DNA of 64,000 bases from an uncultured Actinomycetes bacterium. GTDB lineage: Bacteria > Actinomycetota > Actinomycetes > Streptosporangiales > Streptosporangiaceae. Shown one piece after another: positions 44,770-58,388 of the stretch. Both the position numbers and the translations under genes were made by a program. The stretch lies in assembly GCA_963755815.1 (NCBI GenBank), contig CAVWLF010000001.1, positions 1 through 64,000 of the forward strand, given 5' to 3'. Within the stretch, counting starts at the first letter, position 1. Every line of letters begins with the position of its first letter. A model generated the notes under the pieces. The model was not told the origin of the DNA, did not search any database, and saw nothing but the letters and a program-made list of their open reading frames with translations.

Positions 44770-45801
44770 TTACAGTCGTCCTTCGCTAACGGCCTGCTCA
44801 ATCCACGGAATGACCTCGTCGAGCATCTCGTCGAGCGTGGTGGTGGCCCGGTAGCCGAGCACCCGCCGGGCCTTCTCGACGTCAGGAACCCGCCGTTGCA
44901 CGTCGTGCTCGTACGGCTGCTCAGCCACGAAGCGGAACGGCACATCCGGGCCCTTGACCTTGCGCCAGATGAGCCCGGCCAGGTCGAGCACGGTCGTCGA
45001 CTCCGCGGTCGACAGGTTGAAGTCCTCATTGACCGTGCCCGGGTGCAGCAGCGTGGCGACGATCCCGCGGGCCAGGTCACCGCCGTAGGTGTAGTGCCGG
45101 ATCTGGTCGCCCTGACCGAGGATGCGCAGCGGATCCTGGCCCTTGAGCACCTTCTGCACGAGATCGGGAACGACATGCGACATGGCCAGCCGGACGTTTC
45201 CGGACAGCACCTCGGCCTGGCCAAGCGCCCGTCCCTCGCCGATGCCAACGCAGTTGAACGGGCGCACGATCGTGTACGGCAGCTGGTACTGGTCCCACGC
45301 GGCGCGGGCGAAGTACTCCACGGCGAGCTTCTGGAAGCCGTACGAGGAGCGCGGCGGCGGGATCCGCCGCTCGTCCCCCTCCCGGGACGGCCAGTTGTCC
45401 GTGCTCTCGTACACCATGGAGGAGCTGACATAAGTCATCTTTTGCAGCGTGCCGGATTTATGCGCCCGCAGCGCCGCGTCGCAACTCGACGCGATGATCC
45501 GCTCGTTAGTGGCGAGCAGATCGTAGGCATAGGCGTGAAAGTAGCTAATTCCTCCGATCATCGCGGCTCCGGCGATGAAGTGATCGCACCCTTCCAGTAG
45601 CTCGGCCAGCAAGCCGGCCTCAGCGGCGTCGCCTTCAACAAAATGGTGGTTCGGGTGGTCATCGAAACTATGCTTCACCGGCCCGTACTTGGAGAAGTTG
45701 TCGACCCCGACCACGGTGTGGCCCTGATCGAGCAACTCCTGAACCACGTAGCCGCCGATGAAGCCAGCCGAGCCGGTGACAAGAACCTTCGCCACGAACA
45801 C
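44770..45801 (-). CDS. NAD-dependent epimerase/dehydratase family protein (SDR, nucleotide-sugar modifying)
   Basis: Rossmann motif VLVTGSAGFIGG. Catalytic YxxxK (SSYGFQKLAVE). Extended SDR length. Confidence 0.85.
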   Translation of the reverse strand: MFVAKVLVTGSAGFIGGYVVQELLDQGHTVVGVDNFSKYGPVKHSFDDHPNHHFVEGDAAEAGLLAELLEGCDHFIAGAAMIGGISYFHAYAYDLLATNERIIASSCDAALRAHKSGTLQKMTYVSSSMVYESTDNWPSREGDERRIPPPRSSYGFQKLAVEYFARAAWDQYQLPYTIVRPFNCVGIGEGRALGQAEVLSGNVRLAMSHVVPDLVQKVLKGQDPLRILGQGDQIRHYTYGGDLARGIVATLLHPGTVNEDFNLSTAESTTVLDLAGLIWRKVKGPDVPFRFVAEQPYEHDVQRRVPDVEKARRVLGYRATTTLDEMLDEVIPWIEQAVSEGRL

Positions 45802-45852: not shown

Positions 45853-46605
45853 TCAGCGCGGTGCCGCGGCATCGCTTTCCCGGCGCGCGGTCAGTTTCTC
45901 CAGGGTCAGCCGCGGGCCGAAGGCGAAGCGATACCAGTGCAGGTAGCCAGGCAGCCATTGCACCAAGTCGAAGCGGGACTCCCCGAACGAGCGATCCAGC
46001 CAGATGGTCGGGATCTCGGCGACCGGGCGTCCCAGCCTGGTGGCCTTCGCGGTGAGCTCGAGGCCGATCTCGAATCCGGCTCGCGAGTCAATTCCTACCT
46101 GCCGCACGAACTCGGTCGAGTAGGCCTTGAAGCTATTGGTGGCGTCCCTCGTGCCGACCCGGGCGAGCAGCCGCAGTGACTTGCCCGCCGATCTGGACAG
46201 CAGGCGCTTGAGCTTCGGGCCGCCAACCTGCTGGCCGCCCGGCATATACCGGGATGCGGCGGCGACCGCAACCCCCCGTTCCACTAGCCGGGCCAGGTCG
46301 TCGATCTGCCGCGGGTCGTCGCTGCCATCCGCCATCGTCACCACGGTGACCGGCGACCGCGCCTCGTCGAAGCCGGCCCGGATGGCGTTCGCGGGACCGG
46401 GACCGTAGCCATTGAGCACGCCGCGCACGCGCGCGTCCGCGCTGGCCACCTTCTCGATGTAGGGGACCGTGGTGTCGTCTGGCCGGTCGTAGACGACGAG
46501 TACCTCACACGGCGACGTCACCGCGGCCAGCACCCGGTCCAGGCACGGGCGAATGGCCTCGCCCTCGTTGTAGACCGGAATCACCACAGTGATCTCGGGA
46601 CTCAT
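45853..46605 (-). CDS. GT2 family polyprenyl-phosphate sugar synthase (Dpm1/GtrB/Ppm1-like)
   Basis: VVIPVYNE start motif. DxD (TMADGSDD). QxxRW-like region. Size and motifs match dolichyl/polyprenyl-phosphate hexose synthases. GGAAGAGG RBS. Overlaps the upstream dehydrogenase gene. Confidence 0.85.
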   Translation of the reverse strand: MSPEITVVIPVYNEGEAIRPCLDRVLAAVTSPCEVLVVYDRPDDTTVPYIEKVASADARVRGVLNGYGPGPANAIRAGFDEARSPVTVVTMADGSDDPRQIDDLARLVERGVAVAAASRYMPGGQQVGGPKLKRLLSRSAGKSLRLLARVGTRDATNSFKAYSTEFVRQVGIDSRAGFEIGLELTAKATRLGRPVAEIPTIWLDRSFGESRFDLVQWLPGYLHWYRFAFGPRLTLEKLTARRESDAAAPR

Positions 46606-47816
46606 ACCCGCATGCCTCTTCCGGTCACGCCCCACAGGTCCGCGACCGGCTTGTCGGTGACCAGGTCGCGATATTCCGGATGAGGTGCGGCAACGATCAG
46701 CAGGTCGGCGCGCTCAAGCACCTCGGCCAGCGATGTGAACCGCTTATCGGTGATGTAGGGGTCCGAGCACAGGACCTCGTTCGCCTTGAGAATCAGAATT
46801 TTACGGAGCTTATAGGACAAACTCTCCCGCGAGTCATCGCTGCCGGCCTTGAAGCCCATTCCCAGGACCCCGACGGTGAGTGCGGCGAGATCGTAGCGGG
46901 TCTCCAGCCGGGAGACGAGGTAGAGCGGGAGACCCTCATTGATCAGCATTGCCGAGTGGCCGAGCACGAATTTGTTCTGGTTGAATGCCGCGAGCTGCAT
47001 CGTGTCCTTGAGCAGGCACGGGCCGGCCGCGAAGCCCGGCCCCGGCATATCGGCGGCCCGCGGATAGTCGTGCCGGATGGCCCAGCGTATCCGCTCAAAA
47101 TCTAGCCCGTAGTCATTCGCCATCATCCAGAACTGATTGGCCGTCGCGAATTTGATGTACCGCCAGGTGTTGGTGAAAAGCTTAGCGAGCTCGGCTTCCT
47201 CGGGTTGCAGCCGGACGACCTCATTAGTCAGGATGCGGAAGAACTTTTCCGCCCGGTCGCCAGCACGGTCAGTGCGGGCACCGACGATTTGCGGCAGGTC
47301 GAACAGCTCCTCCATGGCATGTCCCTCGGCGATGCGCTCGGGGCAGAAAGCTATATCCACGTCGATGCCGCGTTTGCTGAGCATGCGCTCGGTCAATGCG
47401 GTGACCGTCGGGTGAATGGTGCTGCGCAGAATGACGAGCTGGCCGTCGACCAGATATTCGGCGCACCGGTCCAGGGCGGCCGGCACCGCGCCCAGGTCCG
47501 GGTTGAGATGCTCGTCAACCGGGGTCCCGACGACGACAACGAGGATCTCGGCGGTACCGACCACCGCCGGGTCGGTCGTGGCCGTGAGCCTGCCTGCGCA
47601 CACGGCCGCGCGCAGCGGCTCCTCGGCACCTTCCTCGGTGAACGGCATGCGCGCATTGCTGACAATTTCTACCGCAGCCGCGTTGAGGTCATATAGGCGC
47701 ACCGATAGGCCGCGCGAAGCCAAGGCCACGCCAAAGGGGAGGCCGACGCGCCCGCAGCCGCCAATGATCGCCACATCGGCCGAGAAGGATGGGGGGGCCT
47801 GCTTGTCCGTTGGCAT
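46602..47816 (-). CDS. UDP-glucose/GDP-mannose dehydrogenase family protein (nucleotide-sugar 6-dehydrogenase)
   Basis: N-terminal NAD motif VAIIGGCGRVGLPFG. Catalytic Cys region GPGFAAGPCLLKD. Three-domain layout. GAGGAA RBS before ATG 47816. Confidence 0.85.
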   Translation of the reverse strand: MPTDKQAPPSFSADVAIIGGCGRVGLPFGVALASRGLSVRLYDLNAAAVEIVSNARMPFTEEGAEEPLRAAVCAGRLTATTDPAVVGTAEILVVVVGTPVDEHLNPDLGAVPAALDRCAEYLVDGQLVILRSTIHPTVTALTERMLSKRGIDVDIAFCPERIAEGHAMEELFDLPQIVGARTDRAGDRAEKFFRILTNEVVRLQPEEAELAKLFTNTWRYIKFATANQFWMMANDYGLDFERIRWAIRHDYPRAADMPGPGFAAGPCLLKDTMQLAAFNQNKFVLGHSAMLINEGLPLYLVSRLETRYDLAALTVGVLGMGFKAGSDDSRESLSYKLRKILILKANEVLCSDPYITDKRFTSLAEVLERADLLIVAAPHPEYRDLVTDKPVADLWGVTGRGMRV

Positions 47817-48038
47817 GCTGTTCCTCGTCCGTTGGCATGCTGTTACTCGTTCGGGCGCAGACATAACGTCATCCGGCGGCTAGTTAAACTGCTGCGGAAA
47901 ACTACCGCAGCAGTCCCGCACCGCCTCGATGGTCCGCAGGCACCGGATTTCCCCGATTCCTTCCGAAGCCGAAGTGTACCTACCGGCGGCGTAACGTAAA
48001 AATCCATTACTTTACCGAGATCTGCACTTGGGGCGCAC

Positions 48039-48067: not shown

Positions 48068-48709
48068 CTATTTACCCAGGCCGGGAGGCGGCGGGCAATG
48101 CTTTGCCAATAGCACCGGCGCCGAATCCGCCGGCCGGCCCGGAAGCGGCCCGCCGACCCGGTAGCGGCGGCCGTCGAGCGCCGAGCACCCCGACCAGCAG
48201 GTAGCTCGCCGTGGTGGCGAGCGCCGTGACGATGGCAAACGATCGTGCGTCCTGGCCGTACCAGCTGATCTCCGGCAGCGCGGCGAAGAAACCAGCCCGG
48301 CGAAGAGCCCGGCCCGCGGCGACACCAGCCGCCGCCCGATCGCCGCCACCCCGGCCGCCGCCGCGGCCATCGCCAGCGCCGACGGCAGCCGGGTGGTGAA
48401 CTCGCTGCTGCCGCCAAGCCGCACCACGACCCAGATGATCATGTAGTAGGCGCCGTGCACGGCGTCAGTGTGGCCCAGTATCCGGATCAGGGCGCCGAAC
48501 GGGCGGCGCACCGCCGCCAGGGTGGCGCCCTCATCCCGCCAGTACGACGGGGTAGTGATCCGCCAGAGCATCAGCGTGAGCGTGGCCGCCGGCGGGACGG
48601 CCCGCATCCAGAGCGGGCCGCCGGCGGCCTGATCCGGCGGCCGCCGGGCCGCTCCGGCCGTCTCCCCGGCTGGCCTGTCCAGGACGGCAGGCCGGCCAGC
48701 TGACGACAT
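48068..48709 (-). pseudogene. N-terminal fragment of a GT-C (PMT/ArnT-like) glycosyltransferase, truncated
   Basis: First ~130 aa (WRITTPSYWRDEGATLAAV...HGAYYMIIWVV) resemble the first TM helix plus DE-containing loop of GT39/83 enzymes. The remainder is low-complexity and there is no catalytic core. Confidence 0.35.
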
Positions 48710-48796: not shown

Positions 48797-49801
48797 TCAG
48801 GCTCCGCGCATGGCCCGGATTGATTCCCGCAGTGACCCCATCGTGGCGAGCACGGCGGACGGCTCGTACCCGCAATGGGCCATGCAGTTGGAGCACCGCT
48901 CGTCCTTGCCGCGGCCGTAGGCGTCCCAGTCGGTGGTCTCGATGAGCTCCTTGTACGTCTTCACGTAGCCGTCGGCCATCAGGTAGCACGGCTTCTGCCA
49001 GCCCAGCAGGGAGTACGACGGGATGCCCCAGGCGGTGCAGCCGAAGTCGGTCTTGCCCTCCAGGAAGTCCAGGAACATCGGCGAGTGATTCAGCCGCCAG
49101 CGCTTCCGGTTGCCGTTGTCGAACGCCTTGCGGAACAGCTCCCTGGTCTCGGTCACGCCGAGGAAGTGCTCCTGGTCCGGTGCCTTCTCGTAGGCGTAGG
49201 CCGGCGAGATCATCATGTCGCTGACCTTGAGGTCGTCGTTGAGGTAGTCGAGCACGTCGATGACGGTCTGCGGGGTGTCGGTGTTGAAGACCGTCGTGTT
49301 CGTGGTGACCCGGAAGCCGCGGCGCTGGGCTTCCCTGATCGCCGCGACCGCCTCGTCGAAGACACCGTCCTTGCAGACCGATGCGTCGTGCCGCTCGGCC
49401 AGGCCGTCAATGTGCACGGTCCAGGCGAAGTACCGGGACGGCGTGAACTTGTCGATGTGCTTGGGCAGCAGCAGCGCGTTAGTGCACAGGTAGACGTACT
49501 TCTTGCGCTTGACCAGTTCTTCCACCAGCACGTGGATCTGCGGGTGCATCAGCGGCTCACCGCCGGCCAGGGAGACCATCGGCGCGCCGCATTCCTCGAT
49601 CGCCGCCAGCGCCTGCTCCACCGGCATCCGCTGCTTCAGCAGGCTGGCCGGCTGCTGGATCTTGCCGCAGCCGGCGCACTTCAGGTTGCACGCGAACAGC
49701 GGCTCCAGCTCAACGATCAGCGGGAACTTCTCCCGCCGGGCGAGCTTCTGGCGGGCTAGGTACGCCCCGACCCGGATGCTCTGGCGCATGGGGATACTCA
49801 T
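48797..49801 (-). CDS. hpnH: hopanoid biosynthesis associated radical SAM protein HpnH (adenosylhopane synthase)
   Basis: Radical SAM CxxxCxxC ([10 protein letters not shown]). Length and conserved C-terminal Cys motif ([11 protein letters not shown]) typical of HpnH. Adjacent to shc. Confidence 0.9.
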
Positions 49802-51303
49802 GTTTGCCTTACCTCCTTGGGCAGGCCGAACCGGATGTTCTCAGTAGCGACGACGCGCTCGCTCACCTCGACCGGGCCGAGGCCGCCGAGCGCGGCGATA
49901 ATCTCGTCGACGACGGACGGCGGCGCCGAGGCGCCGGCCGTGAGCCCGATCGTCGACACTCCAGCCAGCCAGCCGAGCTCGATGTCCTCAGGGCCATCGA
50001 TCAGGTAAGCGGGCCTGCCAGCCCGCTCCGCCGTCTCCACCAGGCGGCGCGAGTTGGAAGAGTTGGCCGACCCGGCCACGAGCACCAGGTCGGATTCGGC
50101 GGCCACGGCACGGACCGAGAGCTGCCGGTTGGTGGTGGCGTAGCAGATGTCGTCGCTGCCGGGCCCGCGGGCGGCCGGGAACCGTTCGAGCAACTCCCCG
50201 ACGAGCCCGCCGGCCTCGTCGGCCGACAGCGTGGTCTGCATCAGGTAAGCCACCTTGCCGGGATCCTCGGGGCGCAGGCCGGCCACGTCGGCCTCGTTTT
50301 CGACCAGGACAGTTGAACCGGGCGCCTCGCCCAGCGTGCCCTCGACTTCCTCGTGGCCGGCGTGCCCGATGAGCGCGACCAGATAGCCGTCGGCGGCGAA
50401 CCGGCGGGCCTCCACATGCACCTTGGACACCAGCGGGCAGGTGGCATCGACGGTTTCCAGCCCGCGCCGGGCCGCCTCGTCCCGCACCGCCGGCGACACG
50501 CCGTGCGCGGAGAACACCGTCACGGCACCGTCCGGAACCTCGCTCAGCTCGTCCACGAAGATCGCGCCGCGGCGCTCCAGGCCCGCCACCACATGGGTGT
50601 TGTGCACGATCTGCTTACGCACGTAGACCGGCGGACCGTGCTGATCAAGCGCCCGCTCGACGATCTCGATCGCCCGCTCGACCCCGGCGCAGAAGGACCG
50701 CGGCCCGGCCAGCACCACCCGCCGCCGCCCGGCCGCGGCCGCCCAGCTGGCGAGCGCGGGCGCGGCCAGCCGCAGGGAGCGCAGCGCCGCGACCCCGCCG
50801 GCCAGGCCCGCCGGGCTCAGCAGCGGCCGCTGCGGCGTATCCGATACGGCCCGGAGCACGATCGCGGGCCGGTCGGCGGCCGCCGCGAGCAGCTGCGCCG
50901 ATTCCATATCGGCCACCAGCGCGCCGGTGCGCGCGAGCCGCTCCCGCTCGGCGCCGTGCACCAGGTGATCGACGGTGACGATCTGGCCGGCCCGGGCGTT
51001 CAGCCCGGCCCGCCGCAGCTCGCCCGCCAGCAGCGGGGCCGACGGGCAGCTGATGGCTGCCGCCCCGGAGCCACTGACCTGCGTGCCAACGACGAGGTCG
51101 CCGGGCGACAGGTCGCCGGAGAGGCCGCCGCCGGTTCCGGCGATGGCCAGCATCCCAAACGAGCCCGGGCGGAGCTTCGCCGCCGCCGAGGCCGATTTCA
51201 CCGGCCCGTAGCCGGTCTGCCTGACCTCGGCGCCGGAGCCGATGCCGCGCCGCACGGCGCGCGCTTCCAGCCGGAGCGGCGAGCAGACGAGCAGCCGGTT
51301 CAT
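49798..51303 (-). CDS. ispH: fusion protein: HpnG-like hopanoid-associated phosphorylase/nucleosidase domain + IspH (4-hydroxy-3-methylbut-2-enyl diphosphate reductase)
   Basis: N-terminal PNP/MTAN-family fold ([14 protein letters not shown]..., ADMESA). C-terminal LytB with the three cluster Cys ([24 protein letters not shown]). Start at MNRLL has GGAGGAA RBS. Confidence 0.8.
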
Positions 51304-51385
51304 CGCATTCCTCCGCTCGGCCCGGCGGGCGCGCCGGGGGCCCGCCCGCCCGCGATTAGCCCGCCCGCGGTCAGCGACGGCCGGC

Positions 51386-53443
51386 TCATCCCGCACCGGC
51401 CAGGTAGCGGCCCAGCGCGCTGACCGGGAAGACCAGGCGGTACAGGTGGTAATTGATGTAGAAGTCACCCGGGAACCCGGTGCCGGTGTACTGCGGCTCG
51501 TCCCAGGTACCGTCCGGGCGCTGATGACTGGCCAGCCAGCGGACGCCGCGCTCTACGCAGGCCGCGTCATCCGCGCTGTCCCCGTCCCCGCTGGCCCCGT
51601 CCCCGTTGTTCCCGGCGCGGCCGGCCGCGCCGTGGCTGCTGCCGGTCTCGCCGTGGCCGGGTCCGGCGGCCGTGGAGCCCTGGCTCGCGGCCAGCAGCGC
51701 GAGCAGCGCCCATGCCGTCTGCGACGCCGTCGACTCGCCGCGCCCGGCCAGGCCCGGGTCGTCATAGGACCGCAGGTCCTCGCCCCAGCCGCCGTCCGGA
51801 TTCTGGTGCTCCCGGAGCCAGGCCACGGCCCGCCTGATCGGCGGCTTGCCGGGCAGCACGCCCGCGGCGATCAGCGCGGGCACCACCGCGCCGGTACCGT
51901 ACACGTAGTTCGCTCCCCACCGGCCGAACCAGGACCCGTCGTCCTCCTGCGCCCGCAGCAGCCAGGCCACGCCGCGGCGCACCGCCTTGCTGCCCGCCAG
52001 GCCCGCCGCGGCAAGCGCCTCGATGGTGTGCGCCGTGACATCCGCGGACGGCGGGTCGATCACCTCGCCGAAGTCGCAGAACGGCAGCTTGGCCACGATC
52101 TTCCTGGTGTTGTCCGCGTCGAAGGCGCCCCAGCCCCCGTCCCGGGACTGCATGCCGGTCAGCCAGCGGAGGCCGCGCGCCGTGGCCGCGGCCGACCGCG
52201 GCTCGGCGGCCGGGTCGACCCGCCGGAGCGCGAGCACCACCTCGGCGGTGTCGTCGATGTCCGGGTAGCCGTCGTTGTCGAACTCGAAGGCCCAGCCACC
52301 CGGGCTGAGCCCGGGCCGGCGGGCCTGCCAGTCACCCGGCCCGCGGATCTCCTCGCCGGCCACCCAGCGGGCCGCTGACGCCAGCGCCGGATGGTCGGCC
52401 GGAAGGCCGGCGTCGGAAAGCGCGATCATCGCCAGCACGGTGTCCCAGACCGGCGACTGGCATGCCTCCAGCCGCCTGGTCGGGCCGTCCGGCCCGTCGG
52501 CCCAGATGGTGAACCGGTCCAGCCCGGCCAGGCCGCGCTTGATCACCGGATGCTCCAGGCCGTAGCCCAGCAGGTGCAGCGCGATCAGCGAGTACACCCA
52601 GGGCGGCTGAATCCCGCCCCAGCAGCCATCGGCCTCCTGCCGGGCGATGATCCACTCCGCGCAGCGCCGCAGGGCCGCGGTCCGGACCGCGCGCATCGGG
52701 CGGGTTTGCTCGCCATGCCGGTGGTAGGCGTGCAGCACGCGGTCAAGCCCGCCGAAGAAGGCCGGCCAGCCCGGCCGCGGCAGGCCCCCGGCGCGGGCCG
52801 CGGCCGGCCCGGGGCCCGGATCAGGCGCGGCCGGCCACAGCTCGGGCAGCGCAAAGGGCAGCGAGCGGACGGGGCGCAGCGATCCGACAATGGTCAGCGG
52901 GACGATCGTCTGCCTGGCCCAGCAGGCCCAGTCCTGCACGTTCAGCGGGAACCAGCCGGGCAGGTAGATCATCTCCGGCGGCATCACCGGGAGCTCGTCC
53001 CAGGACCACTCGCCGAAGAGGGCCAGCCAGATCCTGGTGAACACGCGGGTGGCGGGAATGCCCCCGGCCGCGCGGATCCAGCCCGCCGCCCGCGCCATGT
53101 GCGCGGCGTCCGGCGAGTCGCCGGCCAGCCGCAGCGCGACGTAGGCCTCGACGGTGGTGGAGAGGTCAGCGTCGCCCTGGTAGTAGTTCGCCCAGGTCCC
53201 GTCCGCTCGCTGCCGGGACCTGATCCACCGCGCCGCGGCCGCCGTCTCCGGCTCCGCCCGGATGCCGAGGAACTCGCGGAGGAGCAGGTCCTCCGCATCC
53301 ATGGTGACGTTGGTCTCCAGCTCGCCCTGCCACCAGCCGCCGGGGTGCTGCAGGTCAAGCAGATGACGGGCGGCCAGGTCCAGCGCCGTCCGCGCGACCT
53401 CGGGCGCCGCCTGCCCGCCGGGGCGTGCCTGCGTCACCGTCAT
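51386..53443 (-). CDS. shc: squalene-hopene cyclase
   Basis: Multiple QW motifs (QxxDGxW/GGW). DxDD-type catalytic region (DIDDTAEV). C-terminal [16 protein letters not shown]. Confidence 0.9.
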
Positions 53444-56931: not shown

Positions 56932-57903
56932 TTACCGTCCCGTCGCATAGCAGCGCAGCAGTTCCGCCACGGTCCGGCGCGCGCGGGGGCGCGGCGTGGC
57001 CCTGAGCACATCGTGATCGGCGGCCGCGATCGCGGCCAGCGCGGCCCGGCCGCCGGCCACGTATCCGGCCACGGCCGCCCGGGCGAACCCGCGCAGCGTG
57101 CCGACCAGCGGAGCGCCGGCATCGAGCAGCGCCCGGGCCCGCTGCGTCTCGAACCCGACCAGCGCGCGCAGCGCGGGCGACGACCGGGGCGCGGAAAGGT
57201 CGGACTCGGCGCAGCCGTACCTGGTCATGTCCTCGCCGGGCAGGTAGATACGCCCGGCCCGGAAGTCCTCGCCGACGTCCTGCCAGTGCTCGGCCAGCTG
57301 CAGCGCGGTGCAGACCTGATCGGAGAGCGCGGCCCGGGCCGGGGAGAACGCGCCGAAGGCATACAGCACAATCCGGCCGACCGGATTGGCCGAAAGGCGG
57401 CAGTATCCCTGCAGGTCATCGAATGTCGGATAGCGGGTGACCAGCTGGTCCTGCCGGTTGGCCTGGATCAGGTCCAGAAAGGGCTGCGGCGGGATCGCGC
57501 ACTGGCTGACGACCGGGCCGAGTGCGCGGATCACGCTCAGTTCCGGGCCGCCGCCCTGGCCCGCGTCCCGGTGGCCCGCCTCGTCCCGGTGACCCGCAGC
57601 GGCCTGATCCGCAGCGGGCCCCCCAGCGCCCGCCCGGTCCGCATCCGGCAGGCCCGCGCCCGCCTGGTCCGCATCCGGCGGGCTCGCACCCGCCCCGTCC
57701 GCATCCGGCAGGCCCGCGTACAGCCTGCCCAGGTCGGCCTCCAGCTCATCGAGCAGGCGGGCCCGCTCGGCGACCGGAGCGCGGTCCCCGATGTCATCGG
57801 CCGTGCGGGCGAAGCCGTAGACGGCCATCAGGTGCTGCCGGTGGCGCGCGGGCAGCAGCCGGAGGGCGACCGGGAAATTCTCGCCCGCCGACCGGGCCGC
57901 CAT
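56932..57903 (-). CDS. hpnC: hydroxysqualene synthase HpnC (squalene/phytoene synthase family) with internal low-complexity repeat insert
   Basis: ENFPVA start region. Asp-rich motif FARTADDIGD. YCRLSANPVGR. Start placed at MAARSAGENF. Internal Met at 58026 is an alternative. The ORF extension to 58110 runs into AT-rich promoter DNA. Confidence 0.75.
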   Translation of the reverse strand: MAARSAGENFPVALRLLPARHRQHLMAVYGFARTADDIGDRAPVAERARLLDELEADLGRLYAGLPDADGAGASPPDADQAGAGLPDADRAGAGGPAADQAAAGHRDEAGHRDAGQGGGPELSVIRALGPVVSQCAIPPQPFLDLIQANRQDQLVTRYPTFDDLQGYCRLSANPVGRIVLYAFGAFSPARAALSDQVCTALQLAEHWQDVGEDFRAGRIYLPGEDMTRYGCAESDLSAPRSSPALRALVGFETQRARALLDAGAPLVGTLRGFARAAVAGYVAGGRAALAAIAAADHDVLRATPRPRARRTVAELLRCYATGR

Positions 57904-58087
57904 CGCCGCCTGGATACCCGGCCCGGTGGCCGGCGAAGGGCCGGTTGATGCCGGGCCCCCGTCGGCCGCGACCGCGATTGTGTCAGCCGACAGGCCGGAT
58001 TCCCGGTCGGGGAACCCGGTGCCCATTGGCGTCCGGTCGCGTGTCACGGTCCCTATTTCTGCACAGTTCTCATGGATTTGCAAATAA

Positions 58088-58176
58088 ATGACATCGACGT
58101 CATATGACATGCGTGTCGCTCTTCCCGGAAATCATGACGCGGACGTCACATGACGTCCGTGTCGCCTTTCCGCGTG
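58088..58176 (-). promoter_or_regulatory. two ~42-bp direct repeats, each containing ATGAC-N6-GTCAy-ATGAC palindromic half-sites, upstream of the hpnC operon
   Basis: Unit 1 atgacatcgacgtcatatgacatgcgtgtcgctcttcccg. Unit 2 atgacgcggacgtcacatgacgtccgtgtcgcctttccgcg. Unit 2 contains GACGTCA-ca-TGACGTC. The region is AT-rich relative to the genome. Confidence 0.45.
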
Positions 58177-58271
58177 ACTCCCGCCAGATCGCGGCGGTGC
58201 GCAGATCATATAGGCCGGCCGGGCTGGCGGGAGCACATTATTCCGTTCGTGACCGATTGTCGGCACCGATT

Positions 58272-58300
58272 GCAATAAACCCGCCGCGGCGGAATTAATC
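58272..58300 (-). terminator. putative intrinsic terminator of the PP2C phosphatase gene
   Basis: On the minus strand, the GC palindrome CCGCCGCGGCGG (stem) is immediately followed by GTTTATTG, about 90 bp downstream of the stop at 58389. Confidence 0.5.
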
Positions 58301-58388
58301 TGCTAAGTAAAATTCATATCGCCGGAGCGGTCCCCCGATCGGGCCGCGCCGTCGCGATCAGGGCCGCCGCCAGGTGCCGCTGGGCAGC

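Follow-up and report, generated by a model that had tools for sequence, protein, structure and literature searches.

Hopanoids are sterol-like lipids that stiffen bacterial membranes and leave abundant molecular fossils, and how their synthesis is switched is little understood. In full-text literature searches no regulator or binding motif was found described for an actinobacterial hopanoid operon, and papers on the hopanoids of Streptomyces griseus and S. coelicolor give only effects of growth phase and of guanosine tetraphosphate (ppGpp), together with an internal transcript end. Here, we analyze a stretch of 64,000 nucleotides (nt), referred to as the window, from an uncultured Actinomycetes bacterium of the Streptosporangiaceae (assembly GCA_963755815.1, contig CAVWLF010000001.1, positions 1 to 64,000), in which a pair of direct repeats lies upstream of hpnC, the first gene of a hopanoid operon. 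Comparison of sequences makes it probable that the repeats are a tandem pair of operators, through which a sequence-specific and probably TetR-type regulator, encoded at an unlinked site, would act on the promoter of the operon.

Several described systems provide a background for this locus. In QacR, two dimers of the TetR family read a palindrome of ∼28-30 bp on different faces of the DNA, and its two sites overlap. Other members of the family recognize shorter boxes. HrtR, the haem-sensing TetR repressor of Lactococcus lactis (PDB 3vok), controls its own efflux operon, hrtRBA, and binds an operator of 15 nt (PMC7200772). This operator, hrtO, is a palindrome with a 1-nt centre, in the outer part of which R46 and Y50 of HrtR contact G11 and T12 (PMC5389471). 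RutR recognizes TTGACCAnnTGGTCAA (PMC2475637), and the boxes of McbR and AmtR are TAGAC-N6-GTCTA and CTAT-N6-ATAG, with the 6-bp spacing being essential for AmtR (PMC2723105). Regulators of this type can respond to the products of pathways, as in AibR, where DNA binding is driven by the product isovaleryl-CoA (PMC5389471).

The four-block element upstream of hpnC

The gene hpnC (56932-58047, minus strand) encodes the squalene synthase HpnC, as judged from its match to Pfam SQS_PSY (E 3e-61) and from its homologues, which are abundant and carry this name. It is followed on the same strand by hpnD, hpnE, a polyprenyl synthase gene, shc, an hpnG-ispH fusion and hpnH, which places the repeats in the promoter region of a hopanoid operon, where the initial annotation had put them. 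The gap that they occupy (58027-58388, minus strand) lies between the stop of a gene for a PP2C (SpoIIE-type) phosphatase and hpnC. The G + C content is 0.47-0.65 over 58000-58350, compared with 0.70-0.84 on either side.

A repeat finder and alignment with relatives identify two direct repeats (58088-58171 overall, no strand assigned), at 58088-58125 and 58134-58171, which are 38 nt each, 79% identical and have a period of 46 bp. Each contains a 13-2-13 inverted repeat; the arms at 58136-58148 and 58151-58163 are 92% complementary, and the sequence GACGTCA-CA-TGACGTC is exact at 58142-58157. The 15-mer core GACGTCAYATGACRT, allowing up to 2 mismatches, has 4 strand-hits in the 64 kb, all at the repeats, compared with 0.28 expected, and none of 100 shuffles reached 4. 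With a weight matrix derived from orthologous sites, only the four 14-mers of the repeats score 12 or more in the window, where 0.13 would be expected. Direct repeats of the ATGAC/GTCAT type, a perfect 7-bp inverted repeat in the second unit and AT-enriched surroundings had all been noted from the window by itself, and each of these descriptions holds. The two direct repeats are thus real; it is their unit that needs redrawing, since it is better given as four 4-bp blocks.

Read in the direction of hpnC, the unit is CGAC-N6-GTCA-N2-TGAC-N6-GTCA, with its blocks spaced 6-2-6 over 30 bp, and is equivalent to two adjacent 14-bp palindromes, (C/T)GAC-N6-GTCA, with centres 16 bp apart. The putative proximal composite operator (58089-58118, minus strand) reads CGAC-ACGCAT-GTCA-TA-TGAC-GTCGAT-GTCA and extends from -71 to -42 relative to the GTG of hpnC. 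The putative distal one (58135-58164, minus strand; -117 to -88), CGAC-ACGGAC-GTCA-TG-TGAC-GTCCGC-GTCA, is a lineage-specific tandem copy. The duplicated unit takes in a remnant of the -35 region, as is apparent on comparing GTCATGATTTCC with GTCATTTATTTGC.

Conservation was assessed in two sets of relatives, whose loci carry L numbers. Retrieval by protein gave 10 distinct hpnC loci (L001, L003-L006, L008, L130-L133), with HpnC 61-98% identical to that of the window. The four-block element is present in all 10, in the same position beside TTGC, and the blocks and their spacing hold while the bases between them, and the intergenic region otherwise, have drifted. A separate scan for the exact four-block pattern, across contigs from one genome per species, produced at least 120 matches. 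Among the matches listed, at least 77 have the tail GTCAT-TrT-TTGC, which formed no part of the search, and in 76 of these an hpnC homologue starts less than 700 nt downstream. These hpnC-linked matches, at least 77, all come from soil and peat, in metagenome-assembled genomes (MAGs) that carry the label Streptosporangiaceae, Trebonia, Nocardiopsaceae or ‘uncultured Actinomycetes’; none of those listed is from Frankia, Streptomyces or a cultured member of the Streptosporangiaceae, and the nearest genome among the matches listed is palsa_506 (L090; HpnC ∼90% identical). The bacterium of the window is accordingly placed in an uncultured, Streptosporangiales-like clade and not in Frankia. Independent support for conservation comes from the 10 protein-retrieved loci and from flanking positions outside the search pattern, such as the G after the second TGAC (82 of 84 sequences) and the T after the last GTCA (84 of 84).

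The distribution of the motif is equally restricted. A weight matrix of the 16-mer nTGAC-N6-GTCAn, run over 654 kb from 81 oriented loci, found 183 hits in the 600 bp preceding hpnC and 4 outside this interval, and no further site scored outside the hpnC region of the 64-kb window. The initial annotation had looked to conservation upstream of hpnC in related genomes, and this is amply seen, both in the 10 protein-retrieved loci and in the at least 77 found by pattern. It had also envisaged a regulon, with more such palindromes upstream of other genes, and this did not materialize: there were 4 hits in ∼600 kb outside hpnC upstream regions and 0 elsewhere in the window. Within the DNA scanned, which amounts to ∼720 kb in all (the 64-kb window and hpnC loci of relatives, rather than whole genomes), the motif looks like a dedicated hpnC operator and not a regulon motif. 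The suggestion of an operator-like array for a dimeric regulator is supported by blocks and spacing that lie at a fixed distance from the start of hpnC in all loci examined.

The element is followed closely by what appears to be the promoter. A -35-like hexamer, TTGCAA (58078-58083, minus strand; -36 to -31; TTGCAW across the clade), matches TTGACA at 4 of 6 positions, and its TTGC is the tail seen in the at least 77 hpnC-linked matches; it starts 4 nt after the last GTCA in the clade and 5 nt after it in the window. A candidate extended -10, TGC-AGAAAT (58055-58063, minus strand; -16 to -8), is a poor match to TANNNT, with its TG 1 nt upstream of the hexamer. A position profile across 82 species has an A-rich block with AT at -9 to -7 and TG before it, in which the -10 region (AGAAAT or GAAATA) is without A at -11 or without T at -7. 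In the overall layout, 17 nt separate the -35-like hexamer from an A-rich hexamer whose last letters are AT, and a further 6-7 nt separate the latter from GTG. A generic promoter scan reported no promoter.

The GTG at 58045-58047 (minus strand) is the likely start codon of hpnC, and probably also its transcription start, on the basis of a conserved frame and spacing. In 83 of 84 sequences a GTG (rarely ATG) follows TTGC at a distance of 35-37 nt; it opens the HpnC frame in ∼75 of the 84 and is the sole possible start in several species. There is no Shine-Dalgarno sequence at this GTG: across 64 loci the mean energy of the duplex with the anti-Shine-Dalgarno sequence is -3.8 kcal/mol, compared with -8.8 kcal/mol for hpnD. 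Because of the fixed distance to the start codon and the lack of a Shine-Dalgarno sequence, the arrangement fits a leaderless hpnC mRNA made from an extended -10 promoter with a non-canonical -10. Alternative starts at ATG 58110 or ATG 58026 were rejected in favour of GTG 58047, which is conserved and often the sole possible start; the frame from ATG 58110 is also broken by a 1-nt indel against L001. The GTG position and the promoter layout would place the repeats upstream of the transcription start, on the side where an operator array had been expected.

Other promoter types were considered and set aside. An extracytoplasmic-function sigma promoter, GAGAAC-N17-CGTGA, is plausible in the window and close relatives, and its AAC is not conserved across the clade. 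A promoter of the SigB/SigF type (GTTT...GGGTA), prompted by the PP2C neighbour, does not fit in spacing or -10, and a WhiG-type -10 bears only a loose resemblance. Separately, in the subclade of L006, L131 and L133 a perfect TATAAT (GTATAATC) is conserved at about -110 from the hpnC GTG, upstream of the composite. A block CT(A/G)T-N6-ATAG spans -19 to -6 in 36 of 84 species, with the perfect CTAT-N6-ATAG in 7; in the window it corresponds to CTGTGCAGAAATAG (58053-58066, minus strand). This block equals the core of the box for AmtR, a TetR-type nitrogen regulator; either a further operator covers the -10 here, or the block is no more than the TG-extended -10. The sequence TTTGCAA(A/T) occurs twice in the gap, by the operator (58078-58084, TTATTTGCAAAT) and by a terminator-like hairpin further upstream (58270-58276, TTTATTGCAAT). 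We take TTTGCAAA to be the core of the RamB box and TTGCAA presumably to be a Nur-box half-site; nothing links either regulator to the hpnC locus.

A TetR subfamily with the same geometry in its predicted operators

The matches that are not linked to hpnC, 43 among the at least 120 listed, point to a candidate class of regulator. Seven of these 43 each precede, by 5-20 nt, a TetR-family gene of ∼210-230 amino acids, and the seven genes are homologous to one another. At least five phyla are represented: Archangium, a deltaproteobacterial MAG, Anaerolineales, Muiribacterium, Caldisericia, Clostridium akagii and a high-GC MAG labelled Enterobacterales. The elements are at L070 5019-5048, L114 4515-4544, L111 1436-1465, L112 1480-1509, L128 2706-2735, L094 7083-7112 and L029 153-182. 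Products of this subfamily start MPKETFFNLPEEK...KGSFYQYFEDK and belong to TetR by Pfam TetR_N, and no named NCBIfam family, including the models for RutR, McbR and AmtR, scores above its cut-off. Over their full length they match PDB 3nrg (E 1e-47), a structure which is itself uncharacterized, and their first 69 residues match HrtR (PDB 3vok, E 5e-22), with the same recognition helix.

An independent test of this association used 80 metagenomic loci (L134-L213) that were retrieved by the TetR protein alone, with the DNA pattern playing no part. In 49 of the 80, TGAC-N6-GTCA-N2-TGAC-N6-GTCA, with no more than 2 mismatches in its 16 block positions, ends between -130 and +15 of the gene start; in terms of density, there are 53 hits in 11.3 kb at gene starts versus 10 in 203 kb elsewhere. 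The four-block element at these starts is predicted to be the autoregulatory operator of the 3nrg-type subfamily, for which no prior description of a four-block operator was found. The literature searched also held no bacterial motif of the form TGAC-N6-GTCA or GTCANNTGAC.

The predicted operators of the 3nrg type have four blocks, spaced 6-2-6 over 30 bp, exactly as at hpnC, and there too the outer block is sometimes CGAC. Several observations weigh against the overall reading of the hpnC repeats as promoter-linked operators of a TetR-type regulator. The sites of the 3nrg type have TGAC-Y...R-GTCA inside, whereas those of hpnC have TGAC-R...Y-GTCA. The 3nrg-type element overlaps the -10 or the start codon of its own gene, whereas the hpnC element is upstream of the -35, a position more typical of activators. 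No TetR helix-turn-helix was detected in the window (hmmsearch) or in ∼90 hpnC loci (tblastn). In the 83 pattern-retrieved sequences the blocks are invariant by construction. The -10 of the window is without the canonical A at -11, with the transcription start placed by inference only, and the upstream TATAAT of some relatives suggests a second, canonical promoter that would read through the operator. On balance, the hpnC element would operate like an operator of the 3nrg subfamily and yet misses two of its features, the inner bases and an adjacent TetR gene. With the inner bases reversed, the cognate protein could be a divergent paralogue or come from another family; it is probably a paralogue with altered specificity that is encoded elsewhere, with a protein of another family being less likely.

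A mechanism for a tandem operator pair of this type can be outlined. Each 14-bp palindrome would take one helix-turn-helix dimer, so that each composite takes a pair of dimers on roughly opposite faces of the DNA. The proximal pair of dimers would end 4-5 bp upstream of TTGCAW, at about -41, and TTGCAW with the TG-extended, non-canonical -10 would drive a leaderless transcript from the GTG of hpnC. The most likely regulator is a TetR-family protein with an HrtR-like DNA-binding domain, whose recognition helix would be (R/K)GSFYQYF and whose gene would lie at another place in the genome. Extra sites, such as the second composite of the window and the distant single 14-mers of relatives, may raise local occupancy or permit cooperative binding or looping.

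In terms of the sign of regulation, we lean towards a ligand-responsive repressor. Repression is favoured because most TetR proteins repress, because the footprint would crowd region 4 of the sigma factor and the C-terminal domains of the alpha subunits, and because the site would also block read-through from the upstream TATAAT in some relatives. Upstream activation of the FasR type is the less favoured sign and yet a substantial possibility, argued for by the weak -10. A more specific proposal is that hopanoid synthesis has a regulator of its own, an unlinked TetR-type protein with an HrtR-like domain, which responds to a lipid or membrane signal and sets the synthesis through a four-block, pair-of-dimers operator. 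Squalene, a hopanoid or a polyprenyl intermediate would be candidate signals, in the way that the TetR proteins AibR and FasR sense products. This proposal is tentative and, in its full form, somewhat doubtful.

Competing explanations

The alternative that survives best, and which we still regard as unlikely, is that the dimeric regulator belongs to a family other than TetR, such as XRE, GntR, MarR or LacI, and that the match in geometry to TetR operators arose by convergence. Consistent with it are the inner flanking bases, which differ from the TetR autoregulatory consensus, the lack of a TetR gene linked to hpnC, and a divergent XRE-type HTH_31/DUF5753 gene 1.3 kb upstream of hpnC in L132. 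Convergence would have to account for an identical and unusual 6-2-6 geometry at 49 of 80 genes of a single TetR subfamily. The neighbours of hpnC are otherwise SpoIIE or conservon genes that do not bind DNA, and linkage is therefore uninformative for any family.

A different question is whether the duplication matters, and this involves how the array evolved. In most species there is just one composite. Two to three tandem composites, 45-60 bp apart, are found in the subclade of the window (L001, L003-L005, L026, L078, L090), and tandem composites arose independently in L050 and L085; in the extra copies all four blocks are intact and the spacers have diverged. Many of the hits of the 16-mer matrix lie further upstream, at -150 to -550, and are single 14-mers carried by other lineages, with the consensus gaATATGACAyTnrCGTCAGctaat or aaaCTGACry..GTCAGGT; they are often arrayed at intervals of 25-27 bp, and L095 has four copies. 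The upstream single sites are intact in L004, L005 and L130 and decayed in the window, where alignment identifies the remnant ATGAATTTTACTTAG (58303-58317, minus strand) of what reads ATGACATTGACGTCAG in relatives. From this pattern, the ancestral state is taken to be one composite with distant single sites, tandem duplication being lineage-specific, and the tandem composites appear to have replaced the far-upstream single site.

It follows from the prevalence of single composites that one suffices in most species, and the spacing of copies varies between 45 and 60 bp among relatives, which implies no strict helical phasing. Both observations would suit a neutral duplication, in which the distal copy is non-functional and the proximal site alone matters. 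We nevertheless hold this to be unlikely, though scarcely less credible than a non-TetR regulator: distal and third copies retain their four blocks despite divergence of the spacers (window, L001, L003, L004, L005, L078, L090), and lineages with extra composites lost the far-upstream single site, suggesting functional replacement.

The actinomycete developmental regulator BldD provides a further candidate, according to which BldD, dependent on cyclic di-GMP, would keep the hopanoid operon off during vegetative growth. Its box is TNAC-N5-GTNA (PMC4151990), and TGAC and GTCA satisfy both half-sites; moreover, hopanoids are tied to aerial growth, arising at the substrate-to-aerial transition in S. 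coelicolor according to work cited in PMC2374992. The spacer is N6 in all of more than 180 sites, however, and not the N5 of the 13-bp BldD box. The regulon of BldD is global, with ∼167 targets in Streptomyces (PMC4151990), whereas the hpnC motif is nearly absent from ∼660 kb outside hpnC upstream regions, DNA which contains no known BldD target genes. For BldD boxes no pairing is described, palindromes 16 bp apart included, and in the literature searched no paper linked BldD to hopanoid genes. Regulation by BldD is therefore very unlikely.

The palindromes might also reflect nucleic-acid structure. In each unit the 13-2-13 inverted repeat is followed by a T-rich stretch (GTCATTTATTTGC), and in three species the spacers are perfectly complementary. 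Across 84 species, in contrast, the spacers are mostly mismatched, with middle positions mostly CC or GG; on average 2.61 of 6 spacer positions are complementary, and partners exchanged at random among species give 2.48 ± 0.11. Rfam gave no match over 57900-58500. Since the short blocks are invariant, the spacers are free in sequence and fixed in length, and covariation is lacking, the element is read as a protein-binding site, not a hairpin, and a hairpin, terminator or riboswitch was rejected for want of covariation and of an Rfam match. The least credible explanation is thus a structural one, whether as RNA (a hairpin serving as terminator or attenuator within a long leader), as a cruciform in the DNA or as a mobile repeat, like repetitive extragenic palindromes or miniature inverted-repeat transposable elements, given also that the start codon lies 40 nt downstream without a Shine-Dalgarno sequence, and that the element keeps a fixed position at one gene in at least 77 species and is absent elsewhere in the scanned DNA.

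Neighbouring genes and comparison with known operators

The upstream neighbour of hpnC on the same strand encodes a membrane PP2C (SpoIIE-type) phosphatase (58389-59498, minus strand), which is not DNA-binding and is syntenic in ∼48 related loci. After this gene there is a terminator-like hairpin with a T-run (58280-58293, minus strand), conserved in L001, which sets the upstream boundary of the region controlling hpnC. The intergenic gap contains no conserved small open reading frame that might be a hidden regulator gene. In ∼22 loci, from one branch of the clade (L008, L016, L022, L023, L038, L063, L095 and others), the PP2C gene is replaced by a divergent conservon-like set (NIT/HATPase sensor, Roadblock/LC7 and GTPase), located 150-3400 nt upstream of hpnC. 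The single 14-mers of this branch sit in the gap that hpnC and this set share, and could regulate both. A regulator gene conserved beside hpnC was considered and rejected, the neighbours being SpoIIE/PP2C, the conservon-like set or an Eis-like acetyltransferase, none of them DNA-binding. The XRE-type gene of L132 (340-1221), with a DUF397 partner in a WhiJ/BldB-like pair, is the sole DNA-binding neighbour in ∼90 hpnC loci.

Other features of the region concern the operon and its flanks. Within hpnC, a 30-nt tandem repeat (57602-57718; 3.4 copies, 82% matches) translates into a stretch of low complexity (PDADQAGAG / LPDADRAGAG ...) inserted in the SQS_PSY domain, and the length of HpnC among relatives ranges from 287 to 382 amino acids. 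The hpnG-ispH fusion (49798-51468) combines PNP_UDP_1, an HpnG-type nucleoside phosphorylase-like domain, with LytB/IspH. Sugar-modifying enzymes and an ABC transporter are encoded beyond the downstream end of the operon. Just after hpnH are genes for a UDP-glucose dehydrogenase, a family-2 glycosyltransferase, an NAD-dependent epimerase/dehydratase and a PMT_2-like membrane glycosyltransferase (46602-47864, 45853-46635, 44770-45801 and 48068-48709), an Arn-like set for sugar-lipid modification whose target might be hopanoids or some other lipid of the envelope. A cluster at 59718-63368, upstream of the PP2C gene, encodes a TGT-like homologue of tRNA-guanine transglycosylase, an FmrO-like rRNA methyltransferase, QueD (PTPS), a radical-SAM QueE-like protein and QueC. 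The 7-deazaguanine pathway is unusually paired here with a TGT-like enzyme and a methyltransferase, in an arrangement that is syntenic in L001 and L003 and not in more distant relatives.

The 30-bp site offers a testable lead on the control of hopanoid synthesis: a defined probe, conserved among actinomycetes of acid soil and peat in at least 77 species, together with a predicted promoter layout and a candidate family of regulators. If the proposal is correct, the cognate protein would be the first regulator specific to the hopanoid pathway in Actinobacteria, and the four-block code would be the DNA target of the large 3nrg subfamily of TetR proteins in at least five phyla. As a by-product, a TetR subfamily with a solved structure (3nrg) gains a predicted operator.

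TetR regulators, among them RutR, McbR and AmtR, typically use palindromes of the form 4/5-N6-4/5, which the hpnC sites share. The RutR box contains TGAC-N6-GTCA exactly, and that of McbR shares GAC-N6-GTC. Unlike the hpnC element, all three boxes are single palindromes with other inner bases and serve multi-gene regulons. The operators of AibR, FhtR and Nur were compared as well and differ from the hpnC sites. The closest link in terms of protein is with HrtR, the recognition helix of which, RGSFYQYF, is that of the 3nrg-type subfamily. We take hrtO to be ATGACACAGTGTCAT, in which case G11 and T12 would be the GT of the GTCA block, and its half-site, presumably ATGACAC, would equal the hpnC-type half-site ATGAC(A/G)(C/T). 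In contrast, hrtO is a single palindrome of 15 nt with TGAC-N5-GTCA, whereas the hpnC sites have N6 and 14-bp cores that are paired and arrayed. In length and in the proposed pair of dimers, the hpnC element would resemble a QacR-type site, from which it differs in sequence and in having two discrete 14-mers. Taken together, the conserved blocks and their spacing are those of a strongly conserved cis-regulatory element, best described as a TetR-like operator array attached to the hopanoid operon.

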